Assembly (NCBI GenBank): GCA_020057295.1
Contig: JAGVGF010000006.1
Location: 1-64,000, forward strand
Direction: 5' to 3'
From: an archaeon
Lineage (GTDB): Archaea; Nanobdellota; Nanobdellia; Woesearchaeales; UBA9642
DNA length: 64,000 nt
The translations under genes were made by a program, and so were the position numbers. Under the pieces are notes generated by a model. That model worked only from the letters and a program-made list of their open reading frames with translations, did not search any database and was not told where the DNA came from. Shown piece after piece: positions 28,647-32,624 of this stretch. Numbering within the stretch: the first letter of the stretch is position 1; every line of letters begins with the position of its first letter.

Positions 28647-29291
28647 TTATTTTTCAATTTCTGAAGTTTGCGTATCATCAGGCATAGGAACTAATAATCT
28701 TCCAAACATTTGTAATGGTGAATCATACTCGTGTTCTGGAGTTAAAATATGATCACTTGGATGGAAACCTATCAACGGACTTGAAAATCCTAAGTTTGTT
28801 ATTCTACCGCCTTGAGCTGGATCAACAGGTCTGACTATATATTGCATTATACTTTCTTCAAGCTTAGTAGATTTTGGTTGATAATACTGTATTCTTCCAT
28901 CAAGTTTATGACTGATAAATATTTCTTCAGGAGTTAATTGCATCATTCTATGAATATCCTCTTTAGAATAATCTAGTAATTTACCGGCAAGTTTTTTCTT
29001 AAAGCCATATTGTGCAGCGCTTCTGAAAAATGTTTCACCATCTTTATACACAATCATTCCAACATTTTGTATGGGATTAACCTGATTATTATGTAATACT
29101 GAACATGCTGCTTCTATACCATCAGCAGGTAAATGCTGATCTATTAAAAGAACCGCTTGGTTTGGTGATAATAAAAGATAATTAACATATGTGTTGCCTA
29201 AATTCACAATTTTTTGAGTAACTTCATATTGTTCTCTTAATCTATCTATAAGATATTCACTCATTTTTCGTTTTTCATTTTGAGTTATCAT
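28647..29291 (-). CDS. Hypothetical protein
   Basis: 214-aa ORF with GGTGT SD-like motif; downstream of Lrp. Confidence 0.7.
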   Translation of the reverse strand: MITQNEKRKMSEYLIDRLREQYEVTQKIVNLGNTYVNYLLLSPNQAVLLIDQHLPADGIEAACSVLHNNQVNPIQNVGMIVYKDGETFFRSAAQYGFKKKLAGKLLDYSKEDIHRMMQLTPEEIFISHKLDGRIQYYQPKSTKLEESIMQYIVRPVDPAQGGRITNLGFSSPLIGFHPSDHILTPEHEYDSPLQMFGRLLVPMPDDTQTSEIEK

Positions 29292-29323: not shown

Positions 29324-29794
29324 TTAATTAAGCAATAATCTTGTGTGTGTTTCATCAGACAAGAATCCTTCTCTCTTCAAATCTTCTAGTATAAATACTT
29401 CTTGTCTTAATTCTATCTTGTATTTTTCTAATAGTTCTGTAAATCTTTGTAAATCAGCCATATCTCTGAATATTGCTTCAATCATATAGTCATAGCCATT
29501 ATTTATTCTTAATACAGAGTTTATATTTTCATTAGTCATCAAAAAATCTCTAAATTCTTCTCTTGACTCTTTAGATATCTTAAATAACATATTGATTTTA
29601 ATATCGAATCCTAATTTTTTAAAGTTTATTAATGTTGTATGTTTATGTATTAACTCTCGCTCATACTCTCTTAGCTTGTCGAATATCGTACTAACAGGAA
29701 TTTTTGTATGCCTGCTAATTGTTGTAAGATTTTCTCTAGCATTTCTACGAAAATAAGTCATTAACAGTACATCTTTCCTGTTTTTTAGTTCCAT
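29324..29794 (-). CDS. Lrp/AsnC family transcriptional regulator
   Basis: NAR..LT.IS.....STI HTH, I.F.KLG linker, RAM domain G.DY. Confidence 0.9.
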   Translation of the reverse strand: MELKNRKDVLLMTYFRRNARENLTTISRHTKIPVSTIFDKLREYERELIHKHTTLINFKKLGFDIKINMLFKISKESREEFRDFLMTNENINSVLRINNGYDYMIEAIFRDMADLQRFTELLEKYKIELRQEVFILEDLKREGFLSDETHTRLLLN

Positions 29795-29828
29795 ACGAAT
29801 CCCTCCGTACTACTACATTTTCGCATTA

Positions 29829-30040
29829 TTATAACAACATACTGTTATAATATAAAGAGTACGTGCTTCAGGATTATATATCCTCCTTATAAGAAAATCC
29901 TGAATGCTTCAGAAAAATCCTGAAACAGACACCTATCAGTACACAACATATGGTATGTTTGTGCTAAAATATATCAAATAAAGCTGTTTTAGGTCTTGAA
30001 ACATAAATGTTTAATCAAAATCCTGAAACAGTCTTGAACA
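29829..30040. promoter_or_regulatory. Divergent intergenic region with repeated binding motifs
   Basis: AATCCTGAA at 29896, 29916, 30019 and inverted at 29867; palindrome TTATAACA-N6-TGTTATAA 29829-29850. Confidence 0.65.
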
Positions 30041-30077
30041 GCATAACCTTTAAAAACAACATTCTCCTATAAGCACT

Positions 30078-31670
30078 ATGCGTGATACAGAAGAAGTTAT
30101 CTTAAACATATTCAAGAATAATTTAAGCAAGGAATTAAATACAGAATTCTTAGTTAAAGAAATATACACACAAGAGTATAAAGAGATTGAAGAATTACTA
30201 AATAGTACAGATCGTACAAATGTCCATAATGGTAAACGTAGAAAGTTTCAACTACACAGAAAAATATTATACTATATAAACAAACTTATAGAAAGCGACA
30301 TAATAAAAGTTTCTAAAACCGTTGATAAGGGTGAAAAATATTTTGTTCTAAAAACTGAGGAAGGAGATACAATAATAGAAAAGGGTTACAGAAAAATAAT
30401 AATAACTAAGCCTACACTCTCAACAACACAAATTGAGCAATATGAAAGCAAAGGCGTAATGAGAAAATATAGAGAGGATTCATGGATTAATAGATTTAAT
30501 TCTATACTGTTAGAATGCTCAAAAAATTCTGAATCAAGCAGATTGTACAATTTAGTTAAAGAGTGTTTGACAGATGTTAATGATACAGTTGCATTAAACG
30601 AATTTGAATATGTATTAAGAGAAATGAGCGAGAAGGAAATCACAGATTTTCTTAATAAAATATGTAGAGATACAGAAAGCTATGATAAAAATATGTCTAT
30701 AATATTAAACATAGCAAGCGTTAATAATAAGATATATCATTTTATTGACGAATACACTAACATTAATCCTAAATTTGTTAATGTAATATTTAATATAAGC
30801 AATAAAGATTTACAAAAGAATTCGAAAATCATAGAACATATAATCAAAGAATTTTCTAAACAAAAAATAAAGATTAATATAAAAAATAATGATTTAAGCA
30901 TTGCGCCTTACTTTAAGGGAAAGGCAGGAATATACAATTTTGATGATGAAGATTGGGATGTGTATACAAAAAAATTCAGAGGAAACGTTATCGGTGTAAG
31001 TTGTTCACAGTCACAAATAGCTATAAGTATCAACAGATTTTTTGAAGTATATCATACTGACGTAGAATTCAGACATGCAGTACTTAATGCCGCAAAGACA
31101 TTACTAACAGCAAATAATATTCAACGACGCAAATCTAACGAATATTTTAGAAACATAAACACTCTTAACAATCCTAATGCTGCAGATTTTTATAAATTCA
31201 GCAGAAATTATATAAGATTTTGGAACTATGATTGGCATAAAGACATTCAAGAAAATAATAATTTATTTGAACTTATAAAAAGTACAAAAGAGTTAGTGGA
31301 TAATTTTTGTTATAGTGAAGAAACAGTCTATAAGAGTTGTGGCATACCGATAAGATTTAAGATAGCTTTCAGTAGCGCATTCAGAAATTTTGATCCGAAA
31401 TTTATGGGTGAGCGTGATTATAAAAAAGCCACAGTTAAGAGAGCAGAAGATTATTATACTGGTGAGATGAAGAATTTTATAGTAATTAGAGAAAAAATGT
31501 TCGAAATATTCGACGGTGGAGATAGATTAAGAATTTTTAGAACCAGCGATTTTGAGACTACGGACATAATACACGAATTTAGTATTTTATTGAATACATA
31601 CAAAATTCCGCTATTCACTTACGATTTTAGTGGATTGCGTGGAATGGTAAAATTAACAAATTTCCTGTAA
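30078..31670 (+). CDS. Hypothetical protein with N-terminal winged-helix-like domain
   Basis: RKILYYINKLIESDIIKVSKTVDKGEKYF resembles wHTH recognition helix and wing; rest unassigned. Confidence 0.75.
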   Translation: MRDTEEVILNIFKNNLSKELNTEFLVKEIYTQEYKEIEELLNSTDRTNVHNGKRRKFQLHRKILYYINKLIESDIIKVSKTVDKGEKYFVLKTEEGDTIIEKGYRKIIITKPTLSTTQIEQYESKGVMRKYREDSWINRFNSILLECSKNSESSRLYNLVKECLTDVNDTVALNEFEYVLREMSEKEITDFLNKICRDTESYDKNMSIILNIASVNNKIYHFIDEYTNINPKFVNVIFNISNKDLQKNSKIIEHIIKEFSKQKIKINIKNNDLSIAPYFKGKAGIYNFDDEDWDVYTKKFRGNVIGVSCSQSQIAISINRFFEVYHTDVEFRHAVLNAAKTLLTANNIQRRKSNEYFRNINTLNNPNAADFYKFSRNYIRFWNYDWHKDIQENNNLFELIKSTKELVDNFCYSEETVYKSCGIPIRFKIAFSSAFRNFDPKFMGERDYKKATVKRAEDYYTGEMKNFIVIREKMFEIFDGGDRLRIFRTSDFETTDIIHEFSILLNTYKIPLFTYDFSGLRGMVKLTNFL

Positions 31671-31703
31671 GTTTAAATTAGTAAAGGAGTATGATAGAAG
31701 TAC

Positions 31704-32345
31704 ATGATAATAAACGAAAAGAACTGTATGGATGCGTGGAAGAAATCTTTAAAGCATATTATAGATAATGGTGCAGACTTTAAGGATAGAGATGAAAGAA
31801 TTTGTAGGGAAGTCTTGAATCTTATAGTTAATATTGAACATCCAGAAACTGATTATGACGCACCAATAGATTCTATGCGTAAATTTGAATGGATATATCC
31901 TTCAGTTGAGGAATTATCATCAATAATACTTAATAAAGAAGATTTAGCAATATATGAATTTAGTTATGGCCCTAGAATATTTAATTTTTTAGGTAAAAAA
32001 GATCAGATCAATGATTATATTATACCATTGTTGAAAAAAGATCCTAATAGTAGACGTGCAGTGATATCATTGTTTAATCCTGCAACTGATTCCGACATAT
32101 TAAACAAGAGCGTCCCTAGTTTATTATTCATATATTTTAAAATCAAAGACGGTAAGTTAAATACTACTTGCTTTATTAGAAGTAATGATTTCTTTATAGG
32201 TTGGCCGGGTAACATTTATCAAATATATTTACTACAAAAATATGTTGCTGATAAATTAAATACTAAAACAGGAGCATTATCCACGATATCATGTAGTGCA
32301 CATATATTTCAAGAAAATCTCGAAAATATAAATAAAATATTATAA
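31704..32345 (+). CDS. Thymidylate synthase-like protein (short archaeal type; catalytic Cys replaced by Ser)
   Basis: SYGPRI, DPNSRRA, VPSL (normally PC), RSND...P.N, SAHIF. Confidence 0.85.
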   Translation: MIINEKNCMDAWKKSLKHIIDNGADFKDRDERICREVLNLIVNIEHPETDYDAPIDSMRKFEWIYPSVEELSSIILNKEDLAIYEFSYGPRIFNFLGKKDQINDYIIPLLKKDPNSRRAVISLFNPATDSDILNKSVPSLLFIYFKIKDGKLNTTCFIRSNDFFIGWPGNIYQIYLLQKYVADKLNTKTGALSTISCSAHIFQENLENINKIL

Positions 32346-32435: not shown

Positions 32436-32624
32436 ATGACAAAGAAAGAATATCAAGACGGAGAAGAACCTCCAGTTGATGAATTTGAATCTAATCCTGA
32501 AAGTTTAAGGGATGCTGACGCAATTACTGATGCAGAAGAAGCATTCATGGAAGGATACGAATCAGGAATGGATGAGGAAGAAGAAGAGGAAGAAAAAGAA
32601 AAAGTCGATGAATTTGATATATAA
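32436..32624 (+). CDS. Small highly acidic protein
   Basis: 62 aa, D/E-rich, EEAFMEGY; TATA-like element upstream. Confidence 0.75.
   Translation: MTKKEYQDGEEPPVDEFESNPESLRDADAITDAEEAFMEGYESGMDEEEEEEEKEKVDEFDI

Follow-up and report, generated by a model that had tools for sequence, protein, structure and literature searches.

A 64,000-nt stretch of the genome of an archaeon of the order Woesearchaeales (contig JAGVGF010000006.1 of the GenBank assembly GCA_020057295.1, positions 1 to 64,000; hereafter, the window) contains two adjacent genes that encode a 530-amino-acid (aa) protein and a 213-aa homologue of thymidylate synthase (TS), transcribed divergently from a gene for a regulator of the Lrp/AsnC family. 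The firm findings are that both products of this gene pair derive from enzymes, ribonucleotide reductase (RNR) and TS, that each of them is without the chemistry that defines its family, that the two genes are obligately linked, and that the regulatory region in front of them is conserved. The reading that we favor, tentatively and with not quite even confidence, is that the pair forms a complex, composed of two former enzymes of the deoxynucleoside triphosphate (dNTP) pathway, that senses nucleotides and binds DNA. No published account of the pair was found in full-text literature searches, as judged from the result entries alone. The host genome (1.2 Mb, 6 contigs, ∼30% G+C, with the window on the contig counted here as contig 3) has a completeness rating of 100%, and the homologues of the genes in the window carry the source names Woesearchaeota or Nanoarchaeota archaea. 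The three open reading frames (ORFs) and the 33-nt gap between the stop codon of the 530-aa gene and the start of the TS-like gene are as described in an earlier note made from the sequence of this DNA, and the features of the locus are as follows.

29324..29794, minus strand: gene for the Lrp/AsnC-family regulator, 156 aa, divergent from the pair (PF01037).
29795..30077, no strand: shared divergent promoter region with operator-like repeats (repeat counts and orthologous spacers).
30078-31670, plus strand: the 530-aa ORF, confirmed in the ORF list.
30078..30392, plus strand: winged helix-turn-helix (wHTH) domain, spanning residues 1 to ∼105 of the 530-aa ORF product (fold match of the AlphaFold2 model).
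30414..31670, plus strand: RNR-type ten-stranded alpha/beta barrel, residues ∼113-530 (Foldseek and VIA).
30906..30938, plus strand: predicted finger-loop hairpin PYFKGKAGIYN, residues 277-287 (strand order).
31326..31355, plus strand: VYKSCGIPIR loop, residues 417-426, with the Cys421 codon at 31338-31340 (conservation and predicted complex).
31704..32345, plus strand: TS homologue, 213 aa, with the Ser139 codon at 32118-32120 (PF00303, TIGR03283, and alignments).

The partner statistics given below refer to 96 linked TS-like proteins from 96 genomes, and the barrel statistics refer to 214 full-length members of the 530-aa family. The set of 97 loci consists of the window and one locus per further genome; it omits fragmentary or contig-split copies (G012, G014, G037, G047, G162, G169, G409, and G512), as well as the genomes G355 and G491, both of which are counted in the tally of 101/401 genomes.

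By its profile matches, the 213-aa protein is a member of the TS sequence family: it scores 71.3 bits against PF00303 (cut-off 24.3) and 143.4 bits against TIGR03283, the model of the archaeal short type, which is under the equivalog cut-off of 174.55. The motifs SRR (residues 116-118), RSND (residues 159-162), Asn170, and His200-Ile-Phe202 are present, and in profile alignments Pro138-Ser139 falls on the P-C or A-C pair that includes the catalytic Cys in the solved chains of TS and cytidine monophosphate (CMP) hydroxymethylase. Both the Ser in place of the catalytic Cys and the retained nucleotide-binding residues, which the earlier note had pointed out, are confirmed by these alignments. Across the query and 120 homologues, position 139 is occupied by Ser in 93, Gly in 24, Ala in 3, and Cys in a single sequence. 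Among the linked partners, the respective numbers are 51 for Gly, 32 for Ser, 6 for Ala, 6 for Cys, and 1 for Pro; Cys is absent in 90/96, and the residue is small (Gly, Ser, Ala, or Cys) in 95/96. On a quick maximum-likelihood tree of the TS-like proteins, this position has changed at least 25 times, with Cys appearing in four scattered places; the requirement there is therefore for small size and not for a thiol or hydroxyl group. The proposal that the homologue is non-canonical has accordingly held up in the homologue alignment, whereas Ser139 as a new nucleophile has not, given that position 139 varies freely among Gly, Ser, Ala, and Cys. Cys34 was rejected as a relocated nucleophile, being conserved in only 81/96 partners and lying outside the predicted interface with the 530-aa protein.

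Elsewhere, the nucleotide pocket is mostly preserved, with R159 found in 95 of the 96 partners, S160 in 93, R117 in 91, E36 in 90, H200 in 89, D162 and R91 in 88 each, and N170, Y88, and R118 in 85 each. According to the alignments, the phosphate clamp (the Arg pair from the second subunit and the Arg-Ser of RSxD) and the uracil-reading Asn are retained, with the clamp and Asn positions matched to what we take to be their equivalents in the E. coli TS numbering. Judging from its sequence, the TS homologue cannot be a canonical enzyme. On the tree, the linked TS-like proteins split from five Cys-bearing fused TS cores (SH-aLRT 91). The Cys-bearing short TS cores of relatives carry PF04208 and PF14251, and the domain scan of the 213-aa protein detected no one-carbon cofactor-binding domains of the MtrA-like or PterinBD type. 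The Cys-bearing short TS of related archaea (L020-L029, L032, P0371, and P0372) consist of an MtrA-like domain, then TS, then PterinBD-DUF4346 (PF04208, PF00303, and PF14251); such architectures suggest a dependence of the short TS core of archaea on accessory domains that bind pterin.

An ordinary thymidylate synthase (ThyA), in which Ser139 would be either the nucleophile or irrelevant and the upstream gene would be unrelated, is barely credible. The protein does belong to PF00303, with TIGR03283 as the nearest model, and its homologues are annotated as “thymidylate synthase (methanogen type)”; in addition, another ThyA or ThyX was not found in 4 of 18 module-bearing genomes (G006, G014, G031, and G046). 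However, Gly or Ala occupies the nucleophile position in 57/96 partners, so that a Ser nucleophile cannot be general, the TIGR03283 score stays under the equivalog cut-off, the MtrA-like and pterin-binding domains of the relatives' Cys-bearing short cores are missing, the upstream gene is linked in 96/97 loci, and the genome contains a ThyX-type gene. The latter encodes a tandem ThyX-type protein of 591 aa (PF02511, 39.6 bits; contig 6, L002:1303-3078, plus strand), and the RNR of the genome is a 995-aa protein of the class II type with the NPCSE finger motif (contig 2, L048:700-3687, minus strand). With its own class II-type RNR and ThyX-type enzyme, this genome does not use the pair as its housekeeping route. 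The search for a separate ThyA or ThyX that the earlier note had called for was therefore successful, and its picture of a likely nucleotide scavenger does not fit a host that encodes both of these enzymes. In the 61-genome sample of the order, the 18 module-bearing genomes include 9 with ThyX, 5 with another Cys-bearing ThyA-type gene, and 4 in which neither was found.

Several features of these housekeeping proteins can be recorded here. The 995-aa RNR ends in a Cys-rich, zinc-ribbon-like tail with several CxxC motifs. The 591-aa protein combines two ThyX-like halves in one chain, with the RHR motif in the second half, and this tandem form (two Thy1 matches in one frame of 450-630 aa) recurs in many genomes of the order. 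Upstream of it, L002:214-558 and L002:822-1142 (plus strand) encode two paralogous proteins of ∼110 aa, each with two CxxC...CxxC zinc-ribbon motifs that look TFS/RpoM-like by eye. As for the anaerobic class III system, PF13597 (NrdD) has no match in the host genome, and the best TIGR02495 (NrdG) match, in a 338-aa frame, scores 50.3 bits with the cut-off at 131.15. In six relatives, the glycyl-radical part of the NrdD model, within its final ∼35 positions, matches a separate small frame of 40-85 aa beside an NrdD ending near position 530 (G005:C1:6227-8004, G010:C45:23101-24875, G016:C1:336835-338710, G008:C40:1620-3349, G023:C147:20526-22278, and G033:C23:14350-16159); these frames may reflect an NrdD encoded in two parts or else a site of recoding or frameshifting.

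The 530-aa protein has no Pfam or NCBIfam match, and 76 members of its family have no consistent Pfam match, with PF13597 and the ATP cone each detected in 0/76. There is no Pfam model for this RNR-like family and no detectable sequence link to RNR: a profile search against the PDB sequences returned a chance match only (E 0.64), and the hhalign comparison with the genome's own RNR gave a probability of 0.1%. The comparison with 12 NrdD proteins of relatives was colinear but non-significant (probability 1%); it lines up the PYF, xGG, and PxFT...FS motifs and stops where the zinc site and the glycyl-radical tail begin. Structural comparison was more informative. The best Foldseek matches of the AlphaFold2 model built with 76 homologues (pLDDT 88.4, pTM 0.75) are class III RNRs (E 4.9e-9, TM about 0.5). 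VIA aligned 370 residues with 8p23_A at Z 25.2 and rmsd 3.3, giving Z 16-23 for the other RNR classes and Z 9-17 for other glycyl-radical enzymes, and residues 1 to ∼105 matched winged-helix domains at Z 8-10.6. By these Foldseek and VIA fold matches, the 530-aa protein is a winged helix joined to an RNR-type ten-stranded barrel. The N-terminal wHTH recognized in the earlier note stands, while the remainder of the protein, left unassigned there, can be assigned by fold. With an RNR-type barrel, the locus encodes a pair of altered dNTP-pathway enzymes rather than one pseudo-enzyme and a protein of unknown nature.

The best-conserved residues of the 530-aa family are G281, G284, D169, G422, R380, C421, P424, K87, and Y286, and in the wHTH each of H60, R61, L64, Y65, G85, and K87 is kept in at least 193/214 members. 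The loop around C421, the best-conserved Cys of the family, stands out: C421 is found in 208/214 members and at 91/97 loci, G422 in 212/214, and P424 in 208/214. In contrast to NrdD, the radical apparatus is missing. The glycyl-radical motif R[VIT]xG[FYW] is present in the last 80 aa of 0/214 members and of 7/12 NrdD controls, all from related archaea, and CxxC, which would mark the zinc site, is present in the last 100 aa of 0/214 members and of 11/12 controls. The hairpin 277-287 lies between barrel strands 5 and 6 of the model, with G281 in 214/214 and G284 in 212/214, and in the finger region Cys reaches at most 14/214 in any column; to go by the strand order, this hairpin would be the finger loop, with Gly where RNRs have the radical Cys.

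In a profile search of 1.84 billion proteins, the best 150 of 240 matches were all full-length members of the family, which comprises no fewer than 240 clusters at the 50% identity level. Among named clusters of the ESM Atlas, the closest in language-model features are archaeal proteins that combine wHTH (DUF7347), ATP-cone, and NRDD domains (0.81-0.84), which is to be taken as a lead only; the PF24038 (DUF7347) search of the order found small unrelated wHTH genes only and none at this locus. Those proteins share with the 530-aa family the order of a winged helix followed by an NrdD-type barrel, but they match PF13597 and often have the ATP cone, whereas the 530-aa family has neither (0/76). 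Similarly, the class III RNR NrdD (8p23, 9d3x, 4u3e, and 1h78) has the same ten-stranded barrel with a central finger hairpin, from which the 530-aa protein differs in that it has no sequence match to PF13597 or to PDB chains, that the glycyl-radical tail and zinc site are missing, that Cys is not conserved in the predicted finger region, that its N-terminus is a winged helix and not the ATP cone, and that the host genome has no NrdG-type activase above the cut-off.

The linkage of the two genes is nearly absolute. The 530-aa gene lies directly upstream of the TS-like gene in 15/15 close homologues of the 61-genome sample, and the TS-like gene comes next on the same strand in 96/97 genomes, the exception being a contig edge inside the first gene. 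Together with the divergent Lrp gene, found in 73/92 loci, this answers the question of conserved linkage raised in the earlier note. Of the observations that the note named as counterevidence, neither a loss of linkage nor a general retention of Cys (kept by only 6/96 partners) was seen. No other neighbor of the pair is conserved. A fusion of the two genes was seen among neither the 113 nor the 150 relatives listed, and the search for longer TS-like proteins, in which 2 MtrA-TS-PterinBD fusions and no others came up, speaks only weakly against a fusion of the pair. In a sample of the phylum, the 530-aa family is present in 53/301 genomes, 52 of them from the same order and 1 from a different order within the class; a wider sampling of the order has it in 101/401 genomes, including 74 of the 282 high-quality ones. 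The gene is single-copy, and in the families f1 (7/7), f7 (4/4), and f30 (4/4) it is found in all sampled members, which looks like vertical inheritance.

Since phage enzymes of the TS family make modified pyrimidines, a defense or DNA-modification module, either nucleotide-depleting or base-modifying and aimed at viruses, was among the possibilities, and the accessory, patchy occurrence of the module (101/401 genomes of the order) would suit it. This is nevertheless highly improbable: PADLOC returned 0 matches for 5 proteins, the neighbors are housekeeping genes (uracil-DNA glycosylase [UDG], CorA, and threonyl-tRNA synthetase [ThrRS]) with no mobile-element genes among them, the single-copy gene is inherited within families, as noted above, and base modification would require the nucleophile that the TS-like protein lacks. 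The anti-viral role offered in the earlier note is not borne out.

A complex of the two proteins, the modeling of which had been suggested in the earlier note, was predicted with scores of 0.65, 0.79, and 0.64 (median 0.65), the best of 3 controls scoring 0.00. Of 157 solved complexes, 116 attain the score mark used, as do 2 of 215 mismatched pairs; with the own alignments employed here, both numbers apply only approximately. The runs have at least 75% of the contacts in common, with a partner pLDDT of at least 88. In the predicted interface, barrel residues 340-372 and 413-426 pack against residues 63-74, 79-88, 136-140, and 162-173 of the TS-like protein. By their presumed equivalence to E. 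coli TS, the TS-like contact residues form the wall of the folate site, including the uracil-reading Asn; W63 aligns with the folate-site Trp region of canonical ThyA, and the family-specific W63-x-Y65-P66 motif sits in the interface. In terms of expected error, the best contacts are between C421 and G166, G169, P66, N170, and P168 of the TS-like protein, and the C421 loop is predicted to lie in the cofactor side of the TS-like pocket. Within the barrel, conservation is higher at the interface residues than elsewhere (0.594 versus 0.433, 0/5000 permutations). The modeling supports a physical complex through the former active sites of the two proteins.

The Lrp-type protein encoded on the opposite strand matches PF01037 (AsnC_trans_reg) with 33.2 bits (cut-off 25) over residues 72-120, and NCBIfam Lrp-type models align with residues 11-136, far under their cut-offs; with a ligand-binding RAM domain behind an N-terminal HTH, it is, on these matches, a member of the Lrp/AsnC family. 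A divergent Lrp homologue was scored with a single-sequence query in 92 loci with at least 700 bp of upstream DNA; it was found upstream of the 530-aa gene in 73 of them and not found in the other 19. The 283-bp spacer is indeed rich in repeats, as the earlier note had it: AATCCTGAA is found at 29867 (minus strand), 29896, 29916, and 30019, i.e., in four copies within 29864-30031, and the palindrome CTGAATGCTTCAG (CTGAA-N3-TTCAG) occupies 29900-29912. There are 10 copies of AATCCTGAA in the window versus 0.91 expected, a number reached in 0/100 shuffles, and the spacer is the sole site in the 1.2-Mb genome with at least 3 copies within 200 bp. Two further copies, at 2309 and 2408, are inside a 342-aa ORF that by eye resembles a MoxR-type AAA ATPase. 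The orthologous spacers in other families contain CTGAA-N3-4-TTCAG followed by CCTGAAAC-type half-sites a few bases before a TATA-like box (by eye). At least 3 CTGAA half-sites within 300 bp upstream were counted in 62/75 loci, compared to 9.9% of 485 background windows. Because the half-sites are conserved and still present, at that number, in 6/19 loci without Lrp, the operator belongs to the promoter of the pair's operon, and its candidate readers are Lrp, the winged helix, or both.

The sensory complex that we favor would consist of the 530-aa protein and the TS-like protein as its two subunits. The first would carry a winged-helix DNA-binding domain on an RNR-type barrel that has neither glycyl-radical tail nor zinc site and, in its predicted finger loop, no conserved Cys. 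The second would be a short archaeal TS core that has kept the phosphate clamp and the uracil-reading Asn and no longer needs the nucleophilic Cys. The conserved SCGxP loop of the first subunit would fill the cofactor (pterin or folate) side of the pocket of the second, and the two proteins would together enclose a chamber for a pyrimidine 5'-monophosphate. Occupancy of the pocket could then change DNA binding by the winged helix, making the complex a sensor of the nucleotide pool rather than a dTMP-making enzyme, and the operon stands behind a conserved CTGAA-type operator array common to it and the divergent Lrp gene. That the ligand would be dUMP- or dTMP-like, that it would control DNA binding, and which of the proteins would read the operators are points that we infer, as is a 2:2 stoichiometry of the complex, because both parent enzymes are dimers. 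The module for sensing of the dUMP/dTMP pool envisaged in the earlier note is accordingly retained as the leading reading, in the form of a proposal that falls a little short of being probable.

The position of C421 also fits a different arrangement, a composite enzyme in which Cys421 of the RNR-like subunit would reach into the TS-like pocket and, as the displaced nucleophile or as a second catalytic thiol, act on the bound pyrimidine nucleotide. Its chemistry would be other than folate-dependent methylation, because the loop of the RNR-like subunit is predicted to occupy the cofactor site; Lrp would be the regulator of the operon, and the winged helix would be either inherited from wHTH-NrdD ancestors or autoregulatory. 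Such an enzyme is rather unlikely, although several observations agree with it, of which those on Lrp, on the catalytic TS residues, on the polar barrel residues, and on the near-invariance of C421 also weigh against a sensor. The adjacent, dedicated, divergently transcribed Lrp regulator is more typical of a metabolic operon. Residues with catalytic roles in TS are conserved (Y88 in 85/96, E36 in 90/96, and H200 in 89/96), and the RNR-like barrel is lined by the invariant polar residues D169, R380, and N383. C421 is nearly invariant as Cys, not as any small residue, and its lowest-error contacts are with G166, G169, N170, and P66 of a pocket in which position 139 is small in 95/96 partners, as expected if room is needed; the predicted interface takes in TS-like residues 138-140 and D162. 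All 6 of the 97 pairs that are without C421 have lost at least 1 of the 12 pocket residues, versus 37/90 of those that have it, a comparison that is descriptive in view of the kinship of the genomes. On the other hand, the predicted contacts center on the cofactor-side wall and not on position 139, 6/97 pairs have no Cys at either position, and there is no obvious candidate for the reaction, for a second substrate, or for a source of radicals. A clean swap of the Cys between the partners was rejected, as C421 is present in the partners of all 6 keepers of Cys139 and both Cys are absent from 6 pairs. A split active site, with the thiol of the TS-type pocket moved to the RNR-derived barrel, the invariant Cys421 loop of the latter in the usual place of the folate cofactor, and an unknown, cofactor-independent reaction of a pyrimidine nucleotide carried out in a DNA-tethered form, is likewise unlikely.

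Further points that count against the nucleotide sensor concern the evidence for its parts. The TS Cys is kept in 6/96 partners, and the pocket of two of these, in genomes G515 and G243, is otherwise intact (0/12 residues lost). The complex is a prediction from own alignments, and its TS-like side shows no extra conservation beyond the active-site wall (0.541 versus 0.543). The Lrp-less loci have a mean of 1.74 half-sites, versus 4.43, so the operators could belong to Lrp alone, and no regulon emerges, as the AATCCTGAA, CTGAA-palindrome, and CTGAAACAG patterns are unclustered elsewhere in the genome.

The pair might also have some other role, such as that of a structural or chaperone-like pair or a decaying remnant, unrelated in function to nucleotides, or anything not listed here, which we regard as quite unlikely. 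Both parent activities are lost, and the erosion of the pocket goes further in some lineages (G262, G511, and G156, with 3-7 of the 12 residues gone; G262 has lost C421 and 3/12, and G511 has lost 7/12). The G014 copy of the 530-aa gene (C158:249-1892) contains an internal TAA stop codon. Against this, both proteins are full-length and conserved across the 50%-identity clusters of the family, of which there are at least 240, and the residues of the pocket and of the loop are clearly constrained.

Among the characterized systems, the closest on the TS side are the methanogen-type TS of TIGR03283 and their fusions, which have the same sequence family, core fold, phosphate-binding Arg and Ser, uracil-reading Asn, and pocket His and Tyr; in contrast to them, the proteins described here have no Cys in 90/96 cases, have no pterin domains, and are always paired with an RNR-like protein. 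The CMP 5-hydroxymethylase MilA (5b6d) is the solved protein that matches best by sequence (family profile, E 1.9e-16) and has a TS-family core, but it is larger and keeps the catalytic Cys opposite S139. MilA works alone with folate. On the RNR side, the catalytically inactive herpesvirus homologue of the RNR large subunit, BORF2, in complex with APOBEC3B (7rw6; Z 17.9 to 7rw6_C) offers a parallel, being an RNR-fold protein that is the partner of an enzyme domain acting on nucleotides or bases; BORF2 binds APOBEC3B at the active site of that enzyme. It differs in being viral/eukaryotic, in having no winged helix, and in having a deaminase, not a TS-fold protein, as its partner, and nothing beyond the RNR fold hints at common descent. 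NrdR, the bacterial repressor of RNR genes, is a single protein in which a DNA-binding zinc ribbon is combined with a nucleotide-binding ATP cone. Both NrdR and the archaeal one-component regulators with enzyme-derived sensors may serve as analogies in the way they work only. The DNA-binding and sensor domains of NrdR are different, and homology is not expected. The one-component wHTH regulators have in common with the modeled 530-aa protein the winged-helix domain (Z 8-10.6), and ligand-modulated DNA binding is, for the latter, a proposal.

The immediate neighbors of the module are genes for a family-4-type UDG, CorA, a metallophosphoesterase, and ThrRS. Between the Lrp gene and the upstream genes lies a 214-aa ORF (28647-29291, minus strand) that has no Pfam, NCBIfam, or PADLOC match and was not found beside the module in other genomes. 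Directly downstream of the TS-like gene is an extremely acidic ORF of 62 aa (32436-32624, plus strand), which holds a copy of AATCCTGAA at 32493 and shows no conservation beside the pair in the 14 extended loci compared.

The synthesis of DNA precursors has two committed steps, catalyzed by RNR and TS, which both rank with the most thoroughly studied enzymes, and here derivatives of both are found as a pair that is inseparable in about a quarter of one large DPANN order (101/401 sampled genomes), with a predicted interlock via the former active sites. The public annotation of the TS-like genes as “thymidylate synthase” is probably wrong, which bears on metabolic reconstructions of whether these symbionts make dTMP. 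If the pair is an enzyme, it would carry out a new reaction, with the nucleophile supplied in trans. If it senses nucleotides, the archaea would have in it their first candidate for a dedicated regulator of the dNTP pool, and two enzymes would have been co-recruited as one receptor.

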